DNA of 64,000 nucleotides from positions 96,001-160,000 of the forward strand of contig JAUVNS010000007.1 in NCBI GenBank assembly GCA_030599585.1. Direction: 5' to 3'. How positions within the stretch are numbered: position 1 is the first letter of the stretch; each line of letters begins with the position of its first letter. The stretch comes from Promethearchaeota archaeon (GTDB taxonomy: Archaea; Asgardarchaeota; Lokiarchaeia; Sigyniarchaeales; SOKP01). The translations under genes were made by a program, and so were the position numbers. This document shows, piece by piece, positions 27,094-48,204 of this stretch. The notes below the pieces were generated by a model, which worked only from the letters and a program-made list of their open reading frames with translations, had not been told where the DNA came from and ran no database searches.

Positions 27094-28338
27094 TTGGCAA
27101 ATAAATTAAATCTAGAACACTCTAATAGATTATATAAAGAGGCGTTAGGCTTAATCCCTGGCGCCATTTTAGGAATAAGACGGCCTTACAACTTTGTTGA
27201 GGGCGAATATCCGATTTTTTTTGAGACCGCTAAGGGAGGAAAAGTTACTGATGTTGATGGAAACGAGTATCTCGATATGCTTTGTGCATATGGGCCAATT
27301 ATTATAGGGCACAGGGAAGAAGAAATCGATAATGCCGTAATCGATCAAATAAGAAATAAAGGCTTTTGTATGTCGTTAACCCAACAAATACAAAACAAAT
27401 TGGCAAAGAAATTAAGAGAGTTAATACCATGTTGTGAAAAAATGGTGTTTGTAAAAACCGGTTCTGATGCTACTACAATTGGTGTTCGCGTTGCTCGTGG
27501 GTACACAAAACGAACGAAAATATTACGGTGCGGTTACCATGGCTGGCATTCTTGGTGCGTCGAAAGTAAAGGTGGAATTCCCAAAAAACTCTACGAAGAT
27601 GTCCATGAATTTGAATATAATAACCTTGAAAAAGTAACTCAAATGATGCAAGAATATGGCAACAAGGTAGCTGCCATAATTATCACTCCTATTAATCATC
27701 CAGGAGCTCATGAATTAGAAATGCCAAAACCTGGTTTTTTAGAAGGACTCCGTGAATTAGCAGATAAATACGGTTCTGTTTTAATATATGACGAAATCCG
27801 CACAGGTTTTAGAGTCAATCTTGGGGGTGCTCAGAAAGAGTTAGGCGTAATACCAGATCTCGGAGCTTTCGGTAAAGCTATGGCTAACGGGTATCCTGTT
27901 AGCTTCCTTGGAGGTAAAGAGGAGATAATGGATGCATTAATCGAAGATGTTTTTCTAAGTTCGACCTTCTTTCCAAATAGTTTACCACAAGTAGCTGCTC
28001 TTAAAACCATCGAAATTATGCAGAGGGACGATGTTTTAGGCAATATACGCAAAAAAGGTGAGAAATTTACTAAAAATATTACAGAAATCATTGAAGAAAG
28101 TGGGGTTCCATGTGCATTTTCAGGAGGACCATGGATGCCATATATAACTTTTGATCCCGATCCTAACCACTTATATCGGAAACTAAGGGAAGAGTTTTAT
28201 AGACAATTGATTCGAAGAAAAATCTTCCTTCAACCATATCATCACGGTTATATCTGCTATAGGCACACAGATGAAGATTTAAATAATGCGGCCAATCAGA
28301 TTGCTGAATCTTTAAAAGAATGTAAAAAGTTAATGTGA
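27094..28338 (+). CDS. kat: Class III aminotransferase, 3-aminobutyryl-CoA aminotransferase-like
   Basis: GIRRPYNFVEGEYPIFF, DEIRTGFR, GKAMANG, FLSSTFF, QPYHHGYICYRHTDED resemble recalled Cloacimonas Kat; adjacent to kce. Confidence 0.8.
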   Translation: MANKLNLEHSNRLYKEALGLIPGAILGIRRPYNFVEGEYPIFFETAKGGKVTDVDGNEYLDMLCAYGPIIIGHREEEIDNAVIDQIRNKGFCMSLTQQIQNKLAKKLRELIPCCEKMVFVKTGSDATTIGVRVARGYTKRTKILRCGYHGWHSWCVESKGGIPKKLYEDVHEFEYNNLEKVTQMMQEYGNKVAAIIITPINHPGAHELEMPKPGFLEGLRELADKYGSVLIYDEIRTGFRVNLGGAQKELGVIPDLGAFGKAMANGYPVSFLGGKEEIMDALIEDVFLSSTFFPNSLPQVAALKTIEIMQRDDVLGNIRKKGEKFTKNITEIIEESGVPCAFSGGPWMPYITFDPDPNHLYRKLREEFYRQLIRRKIFLQPYHHGYICYRHTDEDLNNAANQIAESLKECKKLM

Positions 28339-28389
28339 ATAGTAAATTTTGAATTGAAATTAAAGAACATAAAGTAACAATATCTGCTA

Positions 28390-29220
28390 ATGGAAAAGTT
28401 AATTATAACAGCTGCAATTTGTGGTGCTGAAGTATCAAAAGATAATAATCCAAACGTACCTTATACTGTGAGAGAAATTGGTATCGAGGCAGAAAAGGCG
28501 TTCTTAGCTGGTGCGAGTATTATCCATCTACACGTAAGAGAAGACGACGGAACCCCTACTCAAGATATAAAACGTTTCCAAGAAAGTGTCAGTGAAATTA
28601 AAAGCAGATGTCCAGATGTTATCATTCAGCCGTCAACTGGGGGGGCTATTGGAATGAGTAATGAAGAGAGATTACAACCCCTTTTTATGGACCCACACCC
28701 CGAAATGGCTACACTTGATTGTGGAACAATGAATTTTGGCGGAGATGACATTTTCGTTAACACAGAAAATACGATTATCCACTTTGCTAAAGAAATGAAT
28801 TCGCGAGGAATTAAACCAGAGTTAGAGTGCTTTGACAAGGGAATGATTGATATGGCCTTAAAACTTAATAAGAAAGGATATATTAAAGAACCAATGCATT
28901 TTAATTTTGTATTAGGCGTTAACGGTGGGATTACCGCAACTCCACGGGATTTAATTTATATGGTAAATAGCATACCAAAAAGTTCTACATTTACCGTTTG
29001 CGCAATAGGAAGACATGAGTTTCCTATGGTTACGTTGTCAATAGTTTTAGGAGGGCATGCGAGAGTAGGATTTGAAGATAACATCTATCTTTCAAAGGGA
29101 GTCTTAGCTAATTCCAACAAAGAATTAGTAGAAAAAGTGGTAAGGATTTCAAAAGAGTTAGGTAGGGAAATTGCCTCTCCATTCGATGCTAGAAAAATAT
29201 TGAATCTAAAGAGTGAATAA
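28390..29220 (+). CDS. kce: 3-keto-5-aminohexanoate cleavage enzyme (DUF849)
   Basis: KLIITAAICGAE, IIHLHVR, STGG, RVGFED. Confidence 0.88.
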   Translation: MEKLIITAAICGAEVSKDNNPNVPYTVREIGIEAEKAFLAGASIIHLHVREDDGTPTQDIKRFQESVSEIKSRCPDVIIQPSTGGAIGMSNEERLQPLFMDPHPEMATLDCGTMNFGGDDIFVNTENTIIHFAKEMNSRGIKPELECFDKGMIDMALKLNKKGYIKEPMHFNFVLGVNGGITATPRDLIYMVNSIPKSSTFTVCAIGRHEFPMVTLSIVLGGHARVGFEDNIYLSKGVLANSNKELVEKVVRISKELGREIASPFDARKILNLKSE

Positions 29221-32963: not shown

Positions 32964-34466
32964 TTATGTTCTTACCAAAACATCATGAGCATTCAAAAAT
33001 TCCTTCAAATCCTGGATTCTCAAAAGATTAAAATGAAATAAGGAAGCAGCTAATACGGCTTCAGCTCCGTTATTGATTGCTTCTTTAAAGTGCTCTTTAT
33101 TTCCAGCTCCCCCTGATGCGATCACAGGTACGGACACAATATCTGTAATACATCGGATCAAATCAAGATCATATCCCGAATTAGTACCATCTCTATCCAT
33201 GCTTGTAACTAATAGTTCTCCTGCCCCCTTATCAACAACTTTTTTTACCCATTCTAATACATCGAGTCCAGTAGGTTTTGTTCCGCTATGTGAATACACT
33301 TCCCATGATTCACCTTTTTTTTTTGCATCGATAGCGACAACGATTGATTGAGATCCGAATTTAATAGCACCTTTAGTAATTAGGTTTGGATCATTTATAG
33401 CTGCTGAATTTATACTTACTTTTTCTGCTCCTGCCTTGATAATTACCGTCATGTCCTCAATGGTTTTAATTCCGCCACCTACAGTTAATGGGATGAAGAT
33501 TTCTTCTGCTACAGATCGAATTGTATTAAGCATGCTTTTCCGTCCTTCTAGGGTTGCCGAAATGTCTAAGAAAACTAATTCGTCAGCACCATTTTCGTTA
33601 TAATATCGTGCTAAATCAACTGGATCTCCACTATCTCGTAGATTTTTGAATTTGACTCCCTTTACTACTCTTCCATTCTTTACATCTAGACAAGGGATAA
33701 TGCGTTTTACTAGTCGAGATTTGTGAAGATCGTCAAGGAAGGAGCTTAAAAGTTTGAGAGGAATATTTCGATTATATAATGCTTTTCCTACTATAACTCC
33801 ATCAGCATACTCTAGTGCTTTAACTACATCACCTATGCTTGAAATTCCGCCTGAGGCAATAATTCTGGTGTTAGGCTTTTTCTCTTTTTTCAATTCCACA
33901 TAGAGATTTGTATTTAAACCGGTTGAAGTCCCATCTTTCATTATGTCAGTGACAATAAAATCTTGAATTCCCAAATTCTCCAATTTAGAAAAAACTTTAA
34001 ATATATCTAAATTTGTATCAAATTGCCATCCCTTCGTACGGATCGTTTTATTGGAAGAATCTAATGCAATTGCAATCTTGCTTCTATACTGTTTAGATAA
34101 AATCTCTAAAAGTTTGTCATCATCAAACGCTATGGTACCTAAGATTATACGGTCAGTTCCCTGATCTATTAATTCTTCTATCGTTTCAATACTCCGTATT
34201 CCCCCCCCAATCTGAACTTTAATCCCAGCTTGTTTTGAAAGTTTAATCAGATTCAAAATAACGCGATAACTAAGATTATTCCGAAAATCTCCTTTTAATG
34301 CACCATCTAAATTAATAATATGCATCCACCAGGCACCAGCTTTGATGAATTGTCTTAGAATAGCTACGGGGTCATTAGAATATGTGATTTGTTTAGAAAA
34401 GTCACCCTGAGTAAGTCTGACTACTTTTCCCTCTCTTATATCCATGGCAGGAATTATAGTTTTTAT
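32964..34466 (-). CDS. hisAF: Fused HisA-HisF; probable ATA start at 34466
   Basis: [22 protein letters not shown] (HisA) is continuous with [27 protein letters not shown] (HisF). Confidence 0.9.
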
Positions 34467-35071
34467 GTTTGGTTCACCCGTTTTTCTAAAGAATTAACCC
34501 AATATTTCAATATATTTTCTCCAATTGTTTTACTTTTTTCTGGATGAAATTGTATTGCCAAAATTGTCCCATGCTTAAAAATAACTCCAAATTTTACTCC
34601 ATGTAAAGTAAAAGCAGTTATTATATTCTCATCTACCGCATCACAATAATATGTGTGGTTAAAATATGCAAAACCAGAGAAATACGGCTCTTTAAATGCA
34701 ATTACTCTGTTCCATCCCGTATGTGGAATACGAATAGAATTGCTGGGCTTTAACTTCTTCACTTTTCCAGAAAAAATGCCTAATCCCTCAATACCTGGAC
34801 TTTCTTCCGAATTATTGAATAATAATTGTAATCCTAAACATATTCCTAATGTTGGTTTTATTGGTATAATTTGTTTTAATAGAGTAAAGAGCCCTTTTCG
34901 CTTGAGCTCTCCCACAGCATCTCCAAAAGCTCCCACACCGGGTAGAACAATACCATTTGCTTTTTCTATCTCTTCTCTTTCATTAGTTATTATTACATCT
35001 GAATAATATCGTTGTAACGATCGTTGAACAGAGCGTAAATTTCCAATCCCATAGTCAATTATTGTAATCAT
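34463..35071 (-). CDS. hisH: Imidazole glycerol phosphate synthase, glutaminase subunit
   Basis: [29 protein letters not shown]. Confidence 0.95.
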
Positions 35072-35111
35072 AAATAACTCCTCGAATATTTAAAAAGCAT
35101 ACCTTATTGTT

Positions 35112-35717
35112 TCATAATATTCCCTTGGTAGATGGGATATTGCCTCTTCGTTTAGGATCTAACCGAGAAGCTTTATCCAGTGAAGATCCGAGAGCTTTAA
35201 AAACCGACTCTGCCATGTGGTGATCATCTTTTCCATAAAGCACTTTCACATGTAGCGTTATACTAGCGTGAATCGCAAATGTCTGTAAAAAATGTTCTAT
35301 TAACGTGAGAGGTATCAATTCGTCTTGATTCTTTCCAAAATATTTACCCGTCCAAGGGATATTAATACTCGAATAGGGGCGATTAGAAAAATCAACAACA
35401 ACTAATGCTAGGGCTTCATCCATAGGAACGTAAGAGTGTCCAATGCGGCAAATTCCTGATTTGTTTCCAATTGCTTGTTTAAACGCTTTTCCTAACACTA
35501 TACCTACATCCTCCATGGTATGATGAGTATCGACATGCAGATCCCCAGTAGCTTTCACCTCAATGTCAAAAATTCCATGAACTGCGATGTGATTTAACAT
35601 ATGATCGAAAAATCCTATACCTGTATTTATGTTTGCTTTTCCAGAGCCATCTAAGTTAAGCGAAATATTAATAGTGGATTCTTTCGTTTTTCTTTCTTGT
35701 TCTGATTGCCGATTCAT
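35112..35717 (-). CDS. hisB: Imidazoleglycerol-phosphate dehydratase
   Basis: GFFDHML, DTHHTMED, DHHMAE, PSTKG. Confidence 0.95.
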   Translation of the reverse strand: MNRQSEQERKTKESTINISLNLDGSGKANINTGIGFFDHMLNHIAVHGIFDIEVKATGDLHVDTHHTMEDVGIVLGKAFKQAIGNKSGICRIGHSYVPMDEALALVVVDFSNRPYSSINIPWTGKYFGKNQDELIPLTLIEHFLQTFAIHASITLHVKVLYGKDDHHMAESVFKALGSSLDKASRLDPKRRGNIPSTKGIL

Positions 35718-35718
35718 T

Positions 35719-36843
35719 TTAATTTCCTCCTTTTAAAAATAATTTGATTTCATCAATAACTTTTACCATATTTTCTTGGAGTCCGATACTGATTCTTAGG
35801 TTGTTAATCATGTCTGATGACGAATAATACCTTACAAGAATGCCTTTTGAATAGAGATATTCGTAAAGGGTTTTTGGAATCTCTGGAGATTCGAAAGTGA
35901 GTAACACATAACACGCTTCACTTTGATGGATCCAAAAGTTTTTGTACTGATTTTGAACTATTATAAGTTGATTAATGAACCATTCTCTTATTTTTTTCAT
36001 TTCTGTAATTCTCTGATCAACTAGTGGGCTAGATAATGCCGCAAAAGCAGCTTTTTGACCAGCAATGTTAACATTATAAGGTTGTTTAATTGATACTATA
36101 ACTTTTCGAATCTCGTCTGGCATAATTCCATATCCCACTCGGAGCCCTCCTAAACCATAAGCCTTACTAAAAGTTCGAAGAACAACGAGATTCTCGTAAT
36201 TAGGAACCCACTTAGCAAGAGATTGAGAATCTGAGAACTCTATGTAAGCTTCATCAATGACCACTAAGACTGGTAGAGAGACTAGACGTTCAATGAAGCT
36301 TTCTGATACAACGCTTCCGTCTGGATTATTTGGTCGGGCTATAAAAATGATTTTAGACCTTAGCGCTTCTTCTAAAAATTGGTCTTCGTTAAGTACATAT
36401 TTAGCAAACGACTCTTTTTTGACTAATTTTTGAGAGACGGCTAAATTTTTAATTCCATTTACTTGAGCTAAGAACGAAATCATCCCAAATGTAGGGGATA
36501 CAGAGAGAATTTTGTCAGAAGGGTTAGCGTATGCTTTCATTATAAGTTCTATGAGCTCATCCGAACCTGAACTAATTATAAAATTTTTGGAGTCTATTTT
36601 TTCTTTTTTCCCTAAGACTTGTATTAAATTTGAACACAGCATGTCTGGATAATTACCAATATTTGTGAGGGACCTTAATGCTCCCAGAACTTCTGGAAGT
36701 GGATCGAAAGGATTTTCATTGCCATCAAGTTTTATTATTTTTTCAAGTGGGATATTGAGTTCTTCTGCTATGGTTTCTAAAGGTTTAACTCCACTATAAG
36801 TTTTTATTGAAGCAAGATGATCTGCAGTTTTGATTTTAGGGAT
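35719..36843 (-). CDS. hisC: Histidinol-phosphate aminotransferase; probable ATC start at 36843
   Basis: Upstream in-frame IKLDGNENPF and YPD; GSDELI, PNNPDG, DEAY, RTFSKAYGLGGLRVGY. Confidence 0.92.
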   Translation of the reverse strand: MPKIKTADHLASIKTYSGVKPLETIAEELNIPLEKIIKLDGNENPFDPLPEVLGALRSLTNIGNYPDMLCSNLIQVLGKKEKIDSKNFIISSGSDELIELIMKAYANPSDKILSVSPTFGMISFLAQVNGIKNLAVSQKLVKKESFAKYVLNEDQFLEEALRSKIIFIARPNNPDGSVVSESFIERLVSLPVLVVIDEAYIEFSDSQSLAKWVPNYENLVVLRTFSKAYGLGGLRVGYGIMPDEIRKVIVSIKQPYNVNIAGQKAAFAALSSPLVDQRITEMKKIREWFINQLIIVQNQYKNFWIHQSEACYVLLTFESPEIPKTLYEYLYSKGILVRYYSSSDMINNLRISIGLQENMVKVIDEIKLFLKGGN

Positions 36844-38168
36844 TAGTATCTCCTCCTAGCCGCTTCTGAGTGAGCAGTAAGTTCTTCGCTAATAGCTAAT
36901 TTCTCAGCTAAAGGAGCTATAGATTTAACTGTTTTAGTATCTAAAGCTATAAGACTAGTAATTTTGAGAAAATCTATTACTGACAATGGAGACGAAAATT
37001 TAGCGGCACCACCCGTTGGCATTACATGACTGGGACCAGCAACATAATCTCCCATCACTTCACAAGATGATTCTCCGAGGAAAATTCCTCCCGCATTTTT
37101 AATTCGGGGTAAGATTTTTTCTTGATCCTTCATAATGATAGATAAGTGCTCTGGGGCAAAATCGTTAATTGCTGATATAGCATCTTTAGTGTTAGTTACT
37201 AAAATTATTCCGCCATTATTTTCTATTGCATATCGAGCTTTTTCAGCGCGAGACAGTTTTTGTATTTGCTCTTCAACTGAATCTCTGACTATATTTGCGA
37301 TATCTTTACTTGTTGTAAGTAAAATTGGAATTGATAAAAAATCGTGTTCAGCTTGTGCGAGTAAATCAGAAGCAATTAAATGAGGATCCGCAGATTCATC
37401 GGCTAATATAACTGCCTCTGTAGGACCAGTGATACCATCAATTCCTACAATTCCATATACTTCCCGCTTAGCTAAGGTAACGAAGATATTACCGGGGCCA
37501 ACAATTTTATTAACTTTTGGAACTGTTTCAGTACCAAAAGCTAGTGCTGCAATTGCTTGAGCTCCTCCTATCTGGAAAACCCTAAGGTTAACTTTATAAT
37601 CACGCATTAAATTACAAGTAGCTAAAATTATAGGAGAAATTGGAGACGGACTTACAATTATTACTTCTTCAACTCCCGCTACAATTGCAGGGCAAACGCT
37701 ATGAATAACCGTAGATGGGAGCGGAGCGGATCCTCCAGGCACGTAAAATCCGACTCTTTGGATCGGAGTTATTATCTGCCCTAAAGTTCCTCCTAAATCA
37801 CTTGTAGTCCAAGAAGAAGTAGGTTGTTTTTTGTGAAACGCTAATATTCTATGTATCGTTTTATCTAAAACCTCTTTAATTTTAGTGTCGATAGAATTTA
37901 ACGCTGCTTCCATTTGCTCTACTTCTATTTCAATTGAATTAGTTATATCATTTTTTTCTAATTTTTTAGTCCATTCAATTAGAGCTAGATCGCCTTTTTT
38001 TATAACATCGTCAATTATACTTTTAACAACTTCTTGTGGTGTTAAGGGTTTACCGAAAATCTTAATAATCTGCTCGTTAATTTGGGGTGATGCTGGAGTA
38101 TTAACAATTGATTTGCGTATTAGTATAGATTTTTGTGCTTCCTCTAAGGAATATATTGGGATCATCAA
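36843..38168 (-). CDS. hisD: Histidinol dehydrogenase
   Basis: [43 protein letters not shown]. Confidence 0.95.
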
Positions 38169-39172
38169 TTTTCCTCCAAATTCTTAAGTAAATTTTTGTA
38201 GCGTTTAGGTTCCTCTTCAAAGATATAAAGAGTTGGAGCTACCACTACACCACTACCACCTATTTCGCGTAAACCTTTTATGGCATCTTGTAATTTTTCT
38301 TTTTCGACGATAATGTGAATCGCATACATTTTCTCTCCTTTTTTAGTATAAACCGATGATACCGTTGGTCCATCAAGTCCTTCTAAACTTTTTTTAGAAA
38401 AAATCGATTCAGCGATATCTTTACCATTTTCTCCCCTCATATTTACAAAGACAGACACGAATCTCTTTGCTCTGAGTGTTGCTTCAAAATATTCAATCAA
38501 TCCACGAGTGACCTTCATAACAGCTTCATTTCCTAAAGCAGTTCGATTCCCAATCAACACTGCCTCAGAAGTCATTATTTTCCCTCCACTAATTCTTTTT
38601 AATCTATTATCTTTTAGAGTCTTTCCCGTAGAGACAAGATCAACGATTATTTCGCTATAGCCAAGCTCAGGATAAACCTCTAAGGATCCATTTCCGCTCA
38701 CTATCTCATAAGAAATTCCACACGAAGTTAAAAATTGCTTAGTAAGTTTTGGAAACTTAGTTGCAACTCTAATATGTGAATTTTTTCCTTTTTGTTTTAT
38801 TTCTTCAATTGAATATTCCAACCAATCTTCAGGAACAGCAATTTCAAGACTGCATTTTCCAAAACCTAATGCATCATGTACAACTACTACATCTTTTTTC
38901 GTATCAGGCAAATACTCACGAACTAAGTCATATCCAACTATTCCAAGCTCTATCGACCCATTAAGGACACCTCTGACAATATCCACTTGGCGTTGATACA
39001 CCAATTGGAGATCAATGGGACCATTTATAGAGCCAATATACTGTCTGTTATTCCTTTGCACGTTAAACCCACATTCTTTCAAGAAATCTTGGGTTTCTTT
39101 TTCCATTCTCCCTTTTGAAGGTATGGCTAGTCTCACTTGCCGTGATTTATAATAAAACTCTTCTTCTTTCAC
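38165..39172 (-). CDS. hisG: ATP phosphoribosyltransferase (long form)
   Basis: [26 protein letters not shown]-terminal regulatory domain. Confidence 0.95.
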
Positions 39173-40080
39173 TTGTTTCGCCTCCCTAATTCATTTATAA
39201 TTTCACTTAGAGTAATTTTTTGTGTTGCCATTAAGACTAGGACAAAATATGTTAAGTCAGCAATTTCCCAGATAAGGTTATCTCTGTCAGTAAAATTTAT
39301 CACTTCTAAGCATTCTTCTTTGATTTTTGAAAGTAATAAATTATTGTCCTCAGCTAATCTTTTAGTGTATGATTCTTCCACTGAAGAATCCTCTATTCGG
39401 TTATTTATTAGATCATAGAGAACATTTAATGAAAAATCCTTATCAAAAAAACAGGAATATGTCCCGGTGTGGCAAGCATATCCAGTTTGTTGGACTTTAA
39501 ACAGGAGAGAGTCGTTATCACAGTCATAATGGATTTTTTTTACTGCTTGACTGTTTCCTGATTCCTCTCCTTTTATCCATAGTTTATTTCTCGATCTACT
39601 GAAATAGGTTGCCTTCCGGGTGAGTACTGTATTTTTCAACGATTCTTTAGAAGAATATGCGAGCATTAGTACAGTATTGTTCTGATCTTGTACTATTGTC
39701 GGAATAAGTCCTGATCCTTTCTCGAAATCGAGAAGATTTAACAGGCTATTATCTATTAGTGAGTAATTCATTTTTGACTTAAAATTAAAGGTTTCATATC
39801 GGTTTGGTAATGATAGAGAAATAGGTTTATAGCCTTTTTTGTATAGCTGCTTTTTCATTTCATTCTGAGCTTCTTTTATCTCAAACCTTAGATCTATATT
39901 TTGAGAAATTTCTTTCAAATTTTTATTGTTCCCAATCAGTGTATCGAAATCTTGCTCATTAATTTTTAAAACTAAAGTAAAGATAACATCCCAATTCCTT
40001 TTTAAAAATACCTCTTTAATAAACTGAGTAATTCCCCCTACTGGTTCCAAGTCCTTTTTTTCCACCTTTAATATTAACAT
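39169..40080 (-). CDS. hisIE: HisI-HisE fusion with ~110-aa N-terminal extension
   Basis: [36 protein letters not shown]; SYT..KIKEE..EIADL. Confidence 0.92.
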
Positions 40081-40084
40081 AAAA

Positions 40085-40196
40085 TACCCTCAAAACTGAA
40101 TTAGATTTCAGTTCAATTAAATTCCAATGAATACATGATAAAAAAATTATCTTAATTCATCGGAATTATTTATAATGTAGATGATGATGTTCCGAT
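40085..40196 (-). promoter_or_regulatory. Candidate his attenuator: alternative stems 1:2 and 2:3, U7 tract, SD-proximal hairpin
   Basis: ATCGGAA/TTCCGAT versus AATTCCGATGAAT/ATTCATTGGAATT; T7 at 40146-40140; AACTGAA/TTCAGTT next to GAGGGT. Confidence 0.65.
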
Positions 40197-40243
40197 CTGA
40201 TAACATTAAAGCTATTCGATCCATCAACAAAGACTAAACTCAA
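40166..40243 (-). CDS. Candidate His leader peptide (M)SLVFVDGSNSFNVIRSEHHHLHYK
   Basis: TTG start 8 nt after AGGGTG; CAT CAT CAT CTA CAT near the end; stops 85 nt before hisIE. Confidence 0.75.
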   Translation of the reverse strand: MSLVFVDGSNSFNVIRSEHHHLHYK

Positions 40244-40457
40244 TAGATTAACACCCTTAGTTTTTAGAAATATCATATTAATTCACTATTGAGTCCTTAT
40301 TTTAGAGATAACTATACTTGTATTAACTATTTTATGCACCGTAGCCTAAAAAAGTTAACTATATTTGGTGTATTGAAAAAATTATAATTTTAACAATTAT
40401 TATGTTAGTTTAGATTCAATAATAATATTTTTAGAAAATATAGATGGAGAAAGTCTT

Positions 40458-41498
40458 ATGGTAAAAGGAAATAAGTATGGAACGCATAGAGTTATTGAAC
40501 CTAAGGGGACACTTCCTCAACCTGCGTTTAAAATTTCAAATAATGTGACGATTTATGACAACGAGATATTAATCGATGTCGATTATTTGAACATCGACTC
40601 TGCAAGTTTCACTCAATTAAAAGAAGAAGCGGAAGGAAATCTAGATAAGATTAAGAATAAGATTATGGAAATCGTTCAAGAAAGAGGAAAAATGCAAAAC
40701 CCAGTTACGGGTTCGGGAGGGATGTTAATAGGGAAGGTAGAAATGATAGGTGATAACTTAATTGATAAAATAGAATTACAGGTAGGAGATAAAATAGCAT
40801 CATTAGTATCTCTTTCATTAACTCCTCTCAAAATTGAAAAAATCTTAGACATTAATCCAGATATAGATCGAGTTAAGATTGAGGGAAAAGCTATCCTTTT
40901 TGAAAGCGGAATTTACGCAAAATTGCCTGGAGATATGGAAGCAACTCTAGCGTTAGCAGCACTCGATGTTGCTGGAGCTCCCGCACAAGTAAAGAATCTG
41001 GTGAAGGAAGGCGATAATGTTCTAATTCTTGGTGCTACGGGCAAATCTGGACTCATGTGTTCATATATGGCTAAAAAAATGGCTGGTAATAAAGGAAAAA
41101 TCATAGGACAGGCTAGAAACGAGACTCGAGCCGAATTTCTTAGAGAAACCGAGTTTTGCCATGAAGTTATTGTCGCAGATGTATTAAATCCGATAAATAT
41201 CTTAGAAGAAACCCTACAAGCTAATGGTGGGAATGAAGTAGATATAACCATTAATTGTTTGAGCATCCCCAATTCAGAATTATCTTCCATCCTTCCCGTG
41301 AGAGATGAAGGTATTGTATATTTCTTTTCAATGGCCACCAGTTTCACTAAAGCAGCTTTGGGAGCTGAGGGTATAGGAAAAGATGTGACCATGATAATAG
41401 GTAATGGATATACTAAAAATCATGCGCAAATTACCTTAGATTTATTACGAGAATCTGGAACTCTTAGAAGAATTTTTGAGGAAAAATATATAAAATAA
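40458..41498 (+). CDS. kdd: L-erythro-3,5-diaminohexanoate dehydrogenase
   Basis: YGTHRVIEPKGTLPQPA, RGKMQNPVTGSGGML, LDVAGAPAQ, SFTKAALGAEG. Confidence 0.9.
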   Translation: MVKGNKYGTHRVIEPKGTLPQPAFKISNNVTIYDNEILIDVDYLNIDSASFTQLKEEAEGNLDKIKNKIMEIVQERGKMQNPVTGSGGMLIGKVEMIGDNLIDKIELQVGDKIASLVSLSLTPLKIEKILDINPDIDRVKIEGKAILFESGIYAKLPGDMEATLALAALDVAGAPAQVKNLVKEGDNVLILGATGKSGLMCSYMAKKMAGNKGKIIGQARNETRAEFLRETEFCHEVIVADVLNPINILEETLQANGGNEVDITINCLSIPNSELSSILPVRDEGIVYFFSMATSFTKAALGAEGIGKDVTMIIGNGYTKNHAQITLDLLRESGTLRRIFEEKYIK

Positions 41499-41545
41499 AA
41501 GTTAAATCAATATCTAAAAAAAAAAGAAATTTTAATATTAGTTTA

Positions 41546-41869
41546 TTATCCGGGTGGAGTTTGTCCAATTGATGAATAGGCTTCTTCTATAGTGGCCCAA
41601 GTCTCTATTGAATATTTAAATCCAGGGACTGTTAAATACATGTTTAACATAGCCATAGCGCGTCTTCTAATTGCTTCTAATTTCCCTTCCTTTACCAGCG
41701 TTACATTAAGTGATTTTATACCATCCATATCGGCATTTATAGCATTAGGCACAAGAGTTTCCCCAAGACTATCATCTGGTGGAAATTTTTTATTAACTTC
41801 AATACCTTTTTTTATCATCTCTGCTGTAGACTCACCAGGCCAACGAATAAAGGTAACTATATAAGGCAT
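41546..41869 (-). CDS. Small hypothetical protein
   Basis: 107-aa ORF with GAGG SD upstream. Confidence 0.65.
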   Translation of the reverse strand: MPYIVTFIRWPGESTAEMIKKGIEVNKKFPPDDSLGETLVPNAINADMDGIKSLNVTLVKEGKLEAIRRRAMAMLNMYLTVPGFKYSIETWATIEEAYSSIGQTPPG

Positions 41870-42106
41870 TTATATTTCCTCTTTTGATTATTAAATTTTT
41901 ATACGGATTTTAAAAAACTCGCAATTAAAATTAATTCAGATCTCTTATTTAAATATTTACATTTTTGTCAATGGTATCTAATTTAGCCTATAATTTTAAA
42001 AATTGTAGAAAATAAACTAAGAATAGTGGAGTTAGAGATTAATCAATATATTTTTATTGGCTTCCTAGGAATATAATCTAAAAATTATGCAAAATAATTA
42101 AAATAG

Positions 42107-43231
42107 CTACTTTTCAATCAATCTTCCAATAGGATAAGATCCATACTTCTTAACAGTATCAATCATTGCTTTAACATTTTCATATTTACAGGTACTCAAA
42201 ATATCTGAACCCGCGCCTAAGATGAATCCCCCACCTTTAGCGGCATCCTGAAGAGCTTGTTTGGTTGCTTCTATTGTGGCCTCTATAGAGCCGTATGTTA
42301 AAACATAAGTGGCAGAAATATTACCGATAAGACAGATGTCTGCTCCGTATTCTTCTTTGAGAGGCTTTAACCTCATCCCCGATTCGTACTCTAAAGGATC
42401 AATCCCATCTACCCCAGAATTAATAAGATATGGCATAGTTTCCGTAACGTCTCCATCTGAATGAATAAGTAATTTAGCACCGTGCTTATGTGCATTCTTT
42501 GCTAGTTCTTTGTAAACTGGAGTTACAATTTCATTCCAATACTTAGGATTAAAAATGGTGCTTCCCTTTAGCGCCCAATCATCGCAAATAAATACCAAAT
42601 CAATTTCTTTTTCAAAAAAACAGTTCTGTAATTCTTTTGTAATTCGCCCTAAAGCTTTAGCGAGTTCTTTAACTAAATTAAAGTGTTTCCGGATCATATA
42701 TGCAAACTTGTTTATCCCTATCATTGACCAAGACGCGAACGCAACGGAACCTCCAGTCGGAATTGTAACCAAACCTTTTTGAAGATAACTGTCCCAAATT
42801 TTTTTAAATGATTTAAAGTGAATATCTCCAGCAGGTTCCCATGTATTGATATAAGCGATCCATTCTTTCAGTAATTCTGGTGTCTTTAAAACCCCATCCC
42901 GATACCAATCGCCTTCGTAATAGCTAGCCCATTCTGTGACACCGGAGGACTTTATATTATATTCTTTTAAAATTTCTTCTGGAACTTCAGGCTTTTTATG
43001 AGAGTGCGTTCTAATTCTATCGTAATGATACCAAATTGAATCAAATCCCATATGAATTGCTGCCTCATACATGATATGCTTAGAAAGATGTTTACTTTCA
43101 TCAATTCCCATTTTTTCTACCACTTTTTTTGTGAATGGGTAATCGAAGAATTGTGCCAATGTGGGGACACGGTCAGGTTCTTCGTGCTCTAAGGTTTTAA
43201 TTATTCTTTCATGTACGTTCATGTCAATCAT
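42107..43231 (-). CDS. Uroporphyrinogen decarboxylase / MtaA-CmuA family protein
   Basis: EPDRVP, DDWA, HSDG, GNIS, GGGFILG. Confidence 0.85.
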   Translation of the reverse strand: MIDMNVHERIIKTLEHEEPDRVPTLAQFFDYPFTKKVVEKMGIDESKHLSKHIMYEAAIHMGFDSIWYHYDRIRTHSHKKPEVPEEILKEYNIKSSGVTEWASYYEGDWYRDGVLKTPELLKEWIAYINTWEPAGDIHFKSFKKIWDSYLQKGLVTIPTGGSVAFASWSMIGINKFAYMIRKHFNLVKELAKALGRITKELQNCFFEKEIDLVFICDDWALKGSTIFNPKYWNEIVTPVYKELAKNAHKHGAKLLIHSDGDVTETMPYLINSGVDGIDPLEYESGMRLKPLKEEYGADICLIGNISATYVLTYGSIEATIEATKQALQDAAKGGGFILGAGSDILSTCKYENVKAMIDTVKKYGSYPIGRLIEK

Positions 43232-43404
43232 TACAAGTATTTTTCAGTGAGAGATAATAAATACATTAAATTTTATTTTCAAATAAATTTTGTGAGGTAT
43301 AAGACGAACATGAACCTTTAGAATATTTCTCCCTCAAACTCCTAAAACTTTAACAAATAAAAAAAATTAATTACAATAATAAATTAAGATTTCTGGAATT
43401 TATT

Positions 43405-44643
43405 ATGAAAGTAAATAGGCGAATGGAACTATTTGGGAAAGTAAGCGACGAAGATTGGAATAACTGGCGATGGCAATTTAGAAATAGGATTACTACTCTC
43501 GAGGATCTCAAAGAATTCATTCCGCTAACAAAGGAGGAAGATGATCCTAGTATCTTGGAAAAGATGAGAATGGCTATCACCCCCTATTATTTATCATTAA
43601 TCGATCCTCATGATCCATACGATCCCATTCGCAAACAAGCAATCCCTACAATCCATGAACTCCATAAATCTTCTGCTGATTTAGTAGATCCGCTTCACGA
43701 AGATGTTGACTCTCCCACTCCTGGGTTAACTCATAGATATCCAGATCGAGTATTATTTTTAATTACGGAAAACTGTTCTATGTACTGTAGACACTGCACT
43801 CGAAGGAGATTTGCAGGCCATCACGATAAAGCACCTCCAAAGGATCAGATAGATAAATGTATAGATTATATTCAGGAAACACCCGCAATTAGAGATGTCT
43901 TATTATCAGGAGGCGATGCGATGCTTATCTCAGATAAATTATTAGAGGACATCTTGATAAAGTTAAAAGAAATCTCGCATGTAGAAATCGTTCGGTTAGG
44001 TTCTAGAAGTCCGGTTGTTATGCCACAACGTATTACTCCTGATTTATGCGAGATGCTTGAACAATATCATCCCATATGGTTTAATACTCACTTCAACCAT
44101 CCGAATGAAATTACTGAAGACTCTAAGAGAGCATGTGAAATGTTAGCCGATGCCGGTATCCCTCTCGGAAACCAATCAGTCCTATTAAGAGGTGTAAATG
44201 ATTGTATCCATGTTATGAAAAAATTAGTCCAAGAACTAGTAAAAATTAGAGTTCGACCGTATTACATTTACCAATGCGATTTATCCGTAGGATTAGGGCA
44301 TTTTAGAACAAGTGTTGCTCAAGGAATTGAAATTATTGAGGGTCTAAGAGGACATACATCTGGTTTATGTGTCCCAACATTTGTTGTAGATGCTCCGGGT
44401 GGCGGAGGGAAAATTCCTGTAATGCCTGATTACACAATCTCTCAAGGAAATTCGAGAGTTGTTTTAAGAAATTTTGAGGGAGTTATTACGACGTACGAGG
44501 AACCAACTAATTACATACCAGATTGTCATTGCGAAGATTGCGAAAAACAAATAGGGGTTTCAGCATTATTAAGTGGTCAAAAGATGACTATTGAACCCGA
44601 TGATTTAGAAAGAAACTTAAGAAAAAAAAAACTAAGTAAATAG
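43405..44643 (+). CDS. kamA: Lysine 2,3-aminomutase
   Basis: THRYPDRV, CSMYCRHCTRRR, DAPGGGGKIP, C-terminal CHCEDC Zn site. Confidence 0.95.
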   Translation: MKVNRRMELFGKVSDEDWNNWRWQFRNRITTLEDLKEFIPLTKEEDDPSILEKMRMAITPYYLSLIDPHDPYDPIRKQAIPTIHELHKSSADLVDPLHEDVDSPTPGLTHRYPDRVLFLITENCSMYCRHCTRRRFAGHHDKAPPKDQIDKCIDYIQETPAIRDVLLSGGDAMLISDKLLEDILIKLKEISHVEIVRLGSRSPVVMPQRITPDLCEMLEQYHPIWFNTHFNHPNEITEDSKRACEMLADAGIPLGNQSVLLRGVNDCIHVMKKLVQELVKIRVRPYYIYQCDLSVGLGHFRTSVAQGIEIIEGLRGHTSGLCVPTFVVDAPGGGGKIPVMPDYTISQGNSRVVLRNFEGVITTYEEPTNYIPDCHCEDCEKQIGVSALLSGQKMTIEPDDLERNLRKKKLSK

Positions 44644-44748
44644 TAACTTCTAGTATAGTATCTTTGAACATCGGCAATTTTAAAATTTTGGCTCAGTTAT
44701 TTTAGCATATTTTAAAATCATACCCTCTTTTAATTATTTGAAGCACAG

Positions 44749-45801
44749 ATGTTGTCTGGTAATGAGGACTTTCCTACTCTTCTAATCAACGCCATAAAGA
44801 AGAATAAAGTCATATCAATAATTGGTTTATCTAAAAATGTAAGTAAAACTACCACATTAAATCACATAATTAATTTACTAAAGGATAAGCAAACAATTGG
44901 AGTCACATCCATAGGTCGAGACGGAGAACCCTACGATGCGATTACAGAACTCCCAAAACCTAAGATTATAGTTGAAAAAGGAACAATCTTTGCTACAGCA
45001 GAAGATTCTTTAAAGAATAGCGATATAGAGACCGTACTTATTGAAAGCACTAATTTCACTACGCCACTCGGGATCATCAATGTTTACAAAGCAAAAAATA
45101 AAGGTTATGTTGAATTAGCTGGCCCTTCAATGAATAAGCAATTAAAGCACCTCTGTAATGACATGTTAAAGATAGGTTGTGATGTGATTTTTATTGATGG
45201 TGCATTTGATAGGAGATCATTTGCAACACCCCTTATTTCTGATGCAACAATATTATCCACGGGAGCGTCTGTATCCAGAAACATGGAGAAAGTTGTTGAT
45301 CAAACTTCCCATATTTATGATTTATTTACCTTAGATGTAATTAAAGACGATAAAATCAGGAAAATCAGCAAAGATATCTTACTCACTGCTCAAGTAGGAA
45401 TTATAAATGATGACTATTCGACTAAGAAATTAGAAGAATCTACTGCTTTGGGATCGTCTAAAGTAATCTTTGACCAAATAACGAAAAACGCTAAATATCT
45501 GGTAATAAAGGGAGCGATAACCGATAACATTTTAGATGAATATGTAACTAATAAAAAAGTAAAAGACTTTAATGTAATTGCCACAGATCCTACTAAATTA
45601 TTTATTAGTAAGCAAGTTTTCTATAAATTTATAAAAAAGGGGGGTCGCTTAAAGGTGCTAGATCGAATTAATTTAATTGCAATTACGGTTAATCATACAT
45701 CTCCACTAGGGTATGAATTTGAAAATAACCAGTTCATGAGGTTATTACAAGAGAGAATTAACGTTCCTATATTCAATCTTGGTCCTTGTGACAACTTATA
45801 A
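44749..45801 (+). CDS. kamB: KamB-like putative lysine 5,6-aminomutase reactivase subunit
   Basis: SIIGLSKNVSKTTTLN, TSIGRDGE, IDGAFDR; lies between kamA and kamD. Confidence 0.7.
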   Translation: MLSGNEDFPTLLINAIKKNKVISIIGLSKNVSKTTTLNHIINLLKDKQTIGVTSIGRDGEPYDAITELPKPKIIVEKGTIFATAEDSLKNSDIETVLIESTNFTTPLGIINVYKAKNKGYVELAGPSMNKQLKHLCNDMLKIGCDVIFIDGAFDRRSFATPLISDATILSTGASVSRNMEKVVDQTSHIYDLFTLDVIKDDKIRKISKDILLTAQVGIINDDYSTKKLEESTALGSSKVIFDQITKNAKYLVIKGAITDNILDEYVTNKKVKDFNVIATDPTKLFISKQVFYKFIKKGGRLKVLDRINLIAITVNHTSPLGYEFENNQFMRLLQERINVPIFNLGPCDNL

Positions 45802-45846
45802 TTTAAACTTTAGATTATTAAAATTATCTTTAGAGATGAAACTTAC

Positions 45847-47415
45847 ATGAATAAATTAAATTTGGATTTTTCATTCGTTGAAACTGCGAGGAAATTAGCT
45901 CGGAATATTGCTAATGATACTCAAAAGTTCATTGATAAACACACTACTACTTCAATTGAAAGAACGATTTGTAGATTATTAGGGATCGATGGGGTTGATG
46001 AATTTGGAGTTCCATTACCTAACTTAGTAGTAGATCACATTCAACAAAAAGAACATATCAATAATGGCATTGCCATGTACCTTGGGAATACCATTTTACA
46101 TACTAACTTATCTCCTCAAAATATTGCAGAAAAAATATCTAAAAACCAATTAAACATGACAGAATTTCCCTTGAACGACATATCTGAGATAAAAAATGTA
46201 TTATCATCTATAGTCCAGAAAAACTTGGATATAATTAAGCGAAACAAGCAAGATAGAGAAGAATTAATTAATAGATATGGAGAAAAAACGGAACCACTAA
46301 TATATTTGATAGTTGCTACTGGAAATATTTTTGAAGACATGGTTCAAGCACAAGCAGCAGCAAGACAAGGTGCCGATGTTATCGCAGTAATACGCTCTAC
46401 GGGGCAAAGTTTATTAGATTATGTTCCTTATGGTGCCACAACAGAAGGTTTTGGAGGCACTTATGCAACGCAAGAAAATTTCCGTCTTATGAGGTCAGCC
46501 TTAGATAAGGTTAGCGAAGAAGAAGGTAGATATATTAGGCTCACTAACTACTGTTCGGGACTTTGTATGCCAGAAATTGCTGCTATGGGAGCATTTGAAA
46601 GATTAGATATGATGTTAAATGATGCGTTATATGGAATTTTATTTAGGGATATAAACATGCAAAGAACGATAATCGATCAATATTTTTCAAGGATGATAAA
46701 TGCATATGCTGGAGTAATCATCAATACAGGGGAGGACAATTATCTTACCACTGATGACGCTTATGATGCTGCTCATACAGTGTTGGCATCACAATTCATT
46801 AACGAACAATTTGCGAAATTAGCCGGTTTAAGTGAAGAGCAAATGGGATTAGGACATGCGTTTGAAATGAACCCTGAGATGGAAAATGGATTTGTTTACG
46901 AACTTGCACAAGCGCAAATGGCAAGAGAAATATTTCCAAGTGCTCCTTTGAAATACATGCCTCCAACAAAATATATGACGGGAAACATTTTTAAGGGTCA
47001 CGTTCAAGATGCGTTATTCAATATCATTACAATTCTCACAAATCAGAGAATTCACTTACTCGGAATGTTAACCGAAGCAATTCACACGCCATTTATGTCA
47101 GATCGGGCTTTATCCATTGAAAATGCGAAATATATTTTTAAAAATATGAAAAATTTAGGAGAAGAAATTACGTTTAAAGAAGGCGGGATAATACAACAAC
47201 GCGCAAACGAAGTATTGAAGAAAGCTCTTGTACTTCTAATAAAAATAGAAAGGGAGGGTTTATTCAAGACAATTGAAAAAGGGATTTTCGCGCAGATAAA
47301 AAGGCCAATTGATGGTGGGAAAGGATTAGATGGTGTAATTCCTAAAAGCAAAGAATATTTTAATCCTTTCTTGGAAATCATGTCAAAAGAACTACACTTA
47401 GGAGGCGAAAAATAA
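45847..47415 (+). CDS. kamD: Lysine 5,6-aminomutase alpha subunit
   Basis: IVATGNI, QSLLDYVPYGATTEGFGGT, NYCSGLCMPE, KYMPPTKYMTG. Confidence 0.95.
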   Translation: MNKLNLDFSFVETARKLARNIANDTQKFIDKHTTTSIERTICRLLGIDGVDEFGVPLPNLVVDHIQQKEHINNGIAMYLGNTILHTNLSPQNIAEKISKNQLNMTEFPLNDISEIKNVLSSIVQKNLDIIKRNKQDREELINRYGEKTEPLIYLIVATGNIFEDMVQAQAAARQGADVIAVIRSTGQSLLDYVPYGATTEGFGGTYATQENFRLMRSALDKVSEEEGRYIRLTNYCSGLCMPEIAAMGAFERLDMMLNDALYGILFRDINMQRTIIDQYFSRMINAYAGVIINTGEDNYLTTDDAYDAAHTVLASQFINEQFAKLAGLSEEQMGLGHAFEMNPEMENGFVYELAQAQMAREIFPSAPLKYMPPTKYMTGNIFKGHVQDALFNIITILTNQRIHLLGMLTEAIHTPFMSDRALSIENAKYIFKNMKNLGEEITFKEGGIIQQRANEVLKKALVLLIKIEREGLFKTIEKGIFAQIKRPIDGGKGLDGVIPKSKEYFNPFLEIMSKELHLGGEK

Positions 47416-48204
47416 ATGGGTGGTGGACTCTATTCTACAAAAAAAAAAGAATATGACAAGAATTTAGATCTAACTAATATCAGACCGTATGGAGATACAA
47501 TGAACGATGGAAAAATGCAGGTTAGTTTTACTCTTCCTGTAGATGATGGAGAAAAAGCTATATTTGCAGCATTAGAATTGGGTAGAAAGATGGGGATAGA
47601 AGAACCTTCAGTAGCATATCATATATCTTTAGATAAGGGATTCACTTATTTTGTGTTATATGGACGTCTTAAACATTCGATTGATTATACTAAAATAAAA
47701 GTAGAATCTGTAGAAGTTGAAGCGATGACGATTAAAGAAATAAATGATTTTATTAAAGCCGAAATAAAACGTAAATTAGTAGTTATTGGCGCTACAACCG
47801 GGACTGATGCACACACGGTAGGAATCGATGCTATTATGAACATGAAGGGATTTGCTGGTCATTATGGACTAGAGCGATATGAGATGATTGAAGCCTATAA
47901 TTTTGGAAGCCAGGTAACAAATGAAGAATTCGTAAAAAAAGCAATAGATCTTGACGCTGACGTACTTCTTGTTTCTCAAACTGTAACGCAGAAAGATATC
48001 CATGTGAGAAATTTAACTAATCTAGTCGATCTACTGGAAGCTGAAGAGTTAAGAGACAAAATCATTTTAGTCTGTGGTGGTCCAAGAATTTCGAACGAAC
48101 TTGCGAAAGAATTAGGATTTGATGCTGGTTTTGGCCCTAACACTTTTTCTGAGAATGTAGCAAGTTATTTTGTGAAAGAAATTTATAATAGAAAATATAA
48201 ATGA
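47416..48204 (+). CDS. kamE: Lysine 5,6-aminomutase beta (B12-binding) subunit
   Basis: PYGDTMNDG, DAHTVG (DxHxxG), MKGFAG PLP lysine. Confidence 0.95.
   Translation: MGGGLYSTKKKEYDKNLDLTNIRPYGDTMNDGKMQVSFTLPVDDGEKAIFAALELGRKMGIEEPSVAYHISLDKGFTYFVLYGRLKHSIDYTKIKVESVEVEAMTIKEINDFIKAEIKRKLVVIGATTGTDAHTVGIDAIMNMKGFAGHYGLERYEMIEAYNFGSQVTNEEFVKKAIDLDADVLLVSQTVTQKDIHVRNLTNLVDLLEAEELRDKIILVCGGPRISNELAKELGFDAGFGPNTFSENVASYFVKEIYNRKYK

Follow-up and report, generated by a model that had tools for sequence, protein, structure and literature searches.

A histidine-codon leader flanked by conserved RNA hairpins ahead of an Asgard archaeal his operon: a candidate ribosome-mediated attenuator

How might an Asgard archaeon tie the expression of its histidine genes to the supply of histidine? 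On the minus strand of the window (the whole 64,000-nucleotide stretch that was analysed, from a 4.85 Mb genome), a complete his operon with the gene order hisIE-hisG-hisD-hisC-hisB-hisH-hisAF (32964-40080, assigned from ORFs and Pfam matches) is preceded by a 36-codon ORF with a C-terminal cluster of His codons, and this ORF is flanked by three conserved RNA hairpins. The arrangement most likely represents bacterial-style control of the his operon, which would be on when histidine is short. The earlier note on this DNA knew of no His-leader attenuator described in Asgard archaea; our search, which covered the open literature, likewise turned up no archaeal case of attenuation by a leader peptide.

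The leader ORF (40166-40276; minus strand, as are all leader and operon features) begins with an ATG at 40276, preceded by an SD-like AGTGA at 40287-40283, and ends at a stop codon (40168-40166) that leaves 85 nt between the leader and the hisIE ATG at 40080. Its His codons, the proposed sensor, occupy positions -7, -6, -5 and -3 from the stop (40175-40189). In a crude genome-wide scan of 3,399 candidate upstream ORFs, 5′ of 2,283 genes, a single ORF had at least four His codons among its last nine, and it was the one located 5′ of hisIE. One hallmark of leader-peptide attenuators is therefore present here: the operon is preceded by a short ORF that can be translated and is enriched in codons for the end product. 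The earlier note had described this frame as a 25-codon ORF opened by a TTG at 40243, 8 nt after an SD-like AGGGTG (40257-40252), and ending EHHHLHYK. All of these sequence statements hold and the 25 codons are there, but the frame is also open from the in-frame ATG at 40276, which that reading omitted. Nearly all homologues have an SD-like GTGA, a spacing of 6-7 nt and then, in the place corresponding to 40276, a start codon that is ATG, or TTG in three of them; as relatives keep this SD and ATG, and as the TTG lies within the 3′ arm of a stem (P1, below), the leader likely starts at ATG 40276 rather than at TTG 40243, which may be a secondary start.

Loci for comparison were gathered by HisIE or HisG homology, the leader itself not being used for selection. 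A His-rich ORF was found in 15 of 15 genomes with the window type of HisIE (eight of its own genus and seven of a second genus) and in 15 of 15 metagenomic contigs having enough upstream DNA, as the earlier note's reading would require; these homologous ORFs terminate 75-87 nt upstream of hisIE. In the HisIE tree the leader-bearing loci form one clade (support 96/90), and they are thus not independent cases. The leaders are nevertheless of 34, 36, 45, 46, 48 and 53-54 codons, requiring at least five indels, each a multiple of three, among them a deletion of 36 nt immediately 5′ of the His codons in the window lineage. Throughout this change, His stays at -7/-6 relative to the stop that opens hairpin P2 in nearly all homologues, at a fixed distance. 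Pooled dN/dS was about 0.6 for the leader and 0.23 for hisIE, and the leader had diverged less at synonymous sites; this, with the in-frame indels, argues that the frame and the RNA are constrained and the peptide little, and the peptide had no match in NCBIfam. The codon CAT accounts for 102 of the 107 leader His codons, against 65% genome-wide. This bias may be caused by pairing of the His codons with the 5′ arm of P2, where a helix of 5-7 bp is possible, about 10 kcal/mol weaker than P2 itself. No His-rich ORF was found in the short intergenic region of 11 genomes with a different, 400-residue HisIE, nor, in about 33 informative loci with the other HisG type, in the 200 nt that precede the gene.

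The operon is itself mosaic (36843-40080), with a HisD 97% identical to that of genome G002 and a HisG only 52% identical. The upstream region of another relative (L040, in genome G034) retains, 5′ of its leader, a remnant of the leaderless-type promoter. Recombination seems to move leader and hisIE as a unit. HisIE carries a 118-residue N-terminal extension (39727-40080), which had no match in Pfam or NCBIfam and in which BLAST found no resemblance to the HisA domain that distant relatives have fused there. At the other end of the operon, a single ORF of 493 residues (32964-34445) combines hisA with hisF, and the block containing the operon interrupts plus-strand lysine fermentation genes (27094-29220 and 40458-48204).

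Three elements read by the earlier note as segments 1, 2 and 3, together with a U7 tract (40146-40140) and a hairpin beside the hisIE SD (40113-40094), are all present in the window. Its stem between segments 2 and 3, here P2 (13 bp, 40120-40167), starts in the last two bases of the leader stop codon. In 26 aligned sequences 96% of its cells are paired, and 6 of its 13 pairs are changed on both sides, so the stem covaries as well as being conserved; the RNAalifold consensus includes it, and its inner stem and loop, which contain the non-conserved U7, vary. The hairpin beside the SD, here P3 (8 bp with a loop of 4-6 nt, 40093-40114), also covaries, with 95% pairing and two pairs changed on both sides in the 26 sequences, and is degenerate in two leaders (L061 and L101). 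None of 500 shuffles matched the pairing and covariation of P2 and P3, and slid controls gave 19-56%, these being controls that ignore relatedness. The minimum free energy fold contains both hairpins (z = -2.8 against shuffles), and a systematic search for conserved helices returned P2 and P3 as the only strong ones, mutually compatible. The conserved RNA structure of an attenuator is thus found here; its dependence on ribosome position is deduced from geometry (below). Downstream lies a conserved run of three to four U (40095-40092), followed by the hisIE SD (40091-40086); three of the U are invariant in 26 sequences and U4 is present in 20 of 21. This run is located 3′ of P3 and outside the segment that P2 masks.

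Two further candidates were rejected. A role for P3 as a DNA operator is at odds with a spacer that varies from 4 to 6 nt and with changes that keep G-U pairs or swap both sides, and the genome has no perfect second copy. Pairing of segment 3 with the 3′ arm of P3 would give a helix of 6 bp, weaker than P3 and disrupted in the HHW lineages.

Upstream of the ORF a BRE/TATA-like box (40346-40356) is conserved and is the probable promoter of the leader. It is retained in 16 of 17 aligned intergenic regions, and indels fall downstream of the presumed transcription start. Similar boxes peak genome-wide at 30-34 nt upstream of start codons (26 against about 10 per bin), and because the conserved box resembles this motif and lies 70 nt upstream of the leader ATG, we infer that transcription starts near 40324, upstream of the leader. 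The RNA would then include stem P1, whose non-coding 5′ arm (40286-40294) overlaps the SD-like AGTGA, is predicted to be paired in folds and has a sequence, ACTCAATA, that shows no variation in 15 sequences. The 3′ arm (40238-40246), a 9-bp complement of the 5′ arm, lies within the ORF and includes TTG 40243. In leaders L042 and L043 the stem P1 is kept although its arms lie further apart and are changed on both sides, and the divergent leaders L044 and L061 have different SD-covering stems at its position. P1 would limit repeated translation of the leader, although its gain in opening energy over shuffles is clear in only about a third of sequences.

We propose that the leader is very probably a sensor of charged tRNA-His acting through the position of the ribosome. 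A first ribosome would load on the nascent RNA, after which P1 would restrict further loading. When His-tRNA is scarce this ribosome would stall at codons -7 to -5, with its leading edge short of P2; P2 and P3 would then fold, leaving almost no single-stranded RNA, and the polymerase would proceed into hisIE. When His-tRNA is plentiful the ribosome would reach the stop and cover the 5′ arm of P2, leaving about 40 nt of A/U-rich RNA open while the polymerase crosses the conserved U run, and this open RNA would be cleaved by FttA (aCPSF1), giving termination. To our knowledge archaea lack Rho, and the factor would for that reason be FttA. The sign of the switch follows from geometry, the footprint of a ribosome being such that P2 is free with codon -7 or -6 in the A site, whereas its 5′ arm is covered once the stop is reached; the earlier note had predicted the same direction, a stall keeping the stem and a ribosome at the stop melting it. 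An attenuator is argued for by the genomic uniqueness of the leader, its presence in every locus of this HisIE type although selection took no account of the leader, its frame-keeping indels, the weak constraint on its peptide, the covariation of P2 and P3 and the occurrence of Leu, Ile, Arg and Trp leaders ahead of cognate genes elsewhere in the genome. For the whole model, a ribosome-mediated attenuator with FttA-dependent termination as its output, we estimate a probability of roughly 0.55. It presupposes transcription-translation coupling in Asgard archaea. Against it, departure of the ribosome should allow P2 to refold, and the stem would form on ribosome-free RNA too, which means that the decision window would be kinetic; the single candidate for a competing 1:2 helix, that of the His codons with segment 2, is weak at 5-7 bp.

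The termination factor is encoded: the genome has an FttA gene (TIGR03675, 885 bits against a cut-off of 580). In the published structure the FttA complex covers RNA positions -1 to -36 and prefers U-rich sequence at -30 to -36 (PMC11616081). With the polymerase on the U run at 40095-40092, this preferred region would fall on the P2 3′ arm, a fit made post hoc and to an arm whose U content is only moderate. The aCPSF1 of Lokiarchaea, placed in a heterologous host, reads and discriminates U tracts, and efficient aCPSF1 binding needs two U4 tracts (PMC8716108). Counting against an FttA output, the segment that P2 masks, and that would be exposed, is on average 43% U, and U4 is present there in 11 of 21 homologues, so about half are without one. 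Competition between ribosome and FttA on nascent RNA was put forward as a hypothesis in the FttA structure paper (PMC11616081), and the leader would offer a compact natural switch with which to probe it.

The alternative that survives best, though we consider it unlikely, keeps the same sensor and gives it a translational output: a melted P2 would free RNA that occludes the hisIE SD, and a stall would leave that SD open. The ending of P3 at the hisIE SD fits with this, as does a prediction that blocking the P2 5′ arm raises the energy needed to open the hisIE start region from 2.6 to 4.6 kcal/mol. However, shuffled versions of the freed segment perform at least as well as the segment itself (mean z -0.37), the conserved anti-SD helix expected of a translational attenuator is absent, and direct control would extend to the first gene only, out of seven. 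Less probable again is that the same sensor acts on finished mRNA, with aCPSF1 or RNase J cleaving the melted P2, or decay following, while the polymerase is not released. FttA is indeed a nuclease preferring U-rich RNA (PMC11616081) and P2 would be a strong 5′ structure for hisIE, but P1 is predicted to limit repeated translation of the leader, and for this reason we favour a decision taken on the nascent RNA.

The exact mechanism of the earlier note, in which a ribosome starting at the TTG would choose between 1:2 and 2:3 pairing with the U7 tract as terminator, now appears improbable. Every one of its elements exists in the window, and the SD-like word 5′ of the TTG recurs in the closest clade. 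However, its 1:2 pairing through segment 1 (ATCGGAA) is only 79% paired across homologues, with covariation no better than in shuffles, is worth -5.9 kcal/mol against -17.5 for P2, and involves a segment that adjoins the His codons in no lineage other than that of the 36-nt deletion. The U7 tract is likewise a feature of the window lineage, 10 of 21 homologues having no U4 inside P2, and since the inner stem carries five of these seven U in its loop, pairing does not conceal the tract in the way supposed; the conserved ATG start and P1 also speak against this mechanism. A functional His-rich metal-binding peptide, with hairpins that are merely structural, is slightly less credible still: the C-terminus holds 4-8 His and gene callers annotate some copies, but a length of 34-54 codons, a dN/dS near 0.6, the CAT bias, the occurrence of such ORFs only before his operons and the tying of His position to the stop and P2 all oppose it. 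A +1 frameshift at hungry His codons carrying the ribosome to the hisIE start can practically be dismissed, since in 28 of 29 homologues a stop closes the +1 frame 28-97 nt short of the ATG, and the leader-hisIE gap takes all three values modulo 3.

With respect to known attenuators, the leader gave no match to the Rfam His_leader family (RF00514) down to E = 5, and other Rfam matches were at chance level. A scan of the leader for bacterial intrinsic terminators found none; P3 is A/U-rich and followed by a G run, and the leader has neither the G+C hairpin with U tail of hisL and trpL nor their exclusive 1:2, 2:3 and 3:4 helices with support. For these three reasons, no Rfam match, no intrinsic terminator and no exclusive helix set, we do not regard it as a member of the hisL family. 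It resembles enterobacterial hisL in that a short His-codon ORF precedes the his operon and ribosome position sets the fold (PMC3896937), and differs in its 34-54 codons against the short hisL peptide, in its extra stem P1 and in its archaeal host. Its proposed logic is most like that of Salmonella mgtL/mgtA and corL/corA, where full translation of the upstream ORF unmasks a Rho site and a stall gives the resistant fold (PMC12360218); here the signal would be His-tRNA and the factor FttA, and there is no sequence relation. Escherichia coli tnaC and speFL also combine an upstream ORF with factor-dependent termination, but with the opposite sign, a ribosome held at the stop shielding the site (PMC12360218), and they are arrest peptides with conserved sequence. 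In the mycobacterial polycysteine short ORFs, a run of cognate codons at the ORF end controls the operon (bioRxiv 10.1101/834739); these ORFs are described there as leaderless, and the Asgard leader differs in having no conserved anti-SD helix.

Similar leaders occur elsewhere in the same genome: Leu codons before leuA-like and leuS genes (C24:120294 and C21:128621), Ile codons before cimA-like and ileS genes (C40:259305 and C28:118769), Arg codons before an argJ-like gene (C40:252694) and Trp codons before a trpB-like gene (C11:165274), the gene names resting on sequence likeness only. The stem of the cimA-like leader encloses a 29-nt pyrimidine loop. We suggest tentatively, at somewhat less than even odds, that these belong to a genome-wide set of attenuators in Asgard archaea in which the position of a leader ribosome gates FttA/aCPSF1, which is homologous to the CPSF73 and Integrator nucleases of eukaryotes.

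His leaders in which post-stop bases pair with the His codons were found in genomes G073, G070 and G068 and in Candidatus Lokiarchaeum ossiferum B35, which belongs to the same order as the window genome. In B35 (CP104013.1; L107:4191-4435, identical to L134:1205-1450) the ORF precedes hisC, ends with seven His in nine codons and is followed by a 9-bp hairpin and then U8, a fold that differs from that of the window leader. Because B35 is an Asgard archaeon in culture, this related leader would be open to experiment. The SD-led ATG before the B35 hisC (L107:4455-4520) starts an ORF of 20 codons in a different frame from hisC; the hisC start site or the sequence may need checking. In two further loci with a His leader before hisC, the frame is continuous from its ATG in one (L131:3284-3391), and in the other (L132:3235-3336) is restored only by a +1 shift close to a His codon, either a real variant or an assembly error.

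Of 17 loci with the nearest operons outside the Asgard archaea, 13 have a His-ending ORF ahead of hisG, and in 11 a tRNA-His gene is called between the two; with a tRNA gene interposed, control there cannot be translational. These loci and the hairpin-U8 of B35 lend indirect support to an output at the RNA level, through leaders of another fold. Among Woesearchaeota and Nanoarchaeota (L142-L155, at about 500-900) the order is His-ending ORF, tRNA-His gene, often with an intron, and then hisG; MAGs titled Methanosarcinales group with these genomes. There the His-ending ORF is overlapped, in another frame, by a short leaderless ORF that has a single His codon, an overlap that suggests a +1 frameshift at that His codon.
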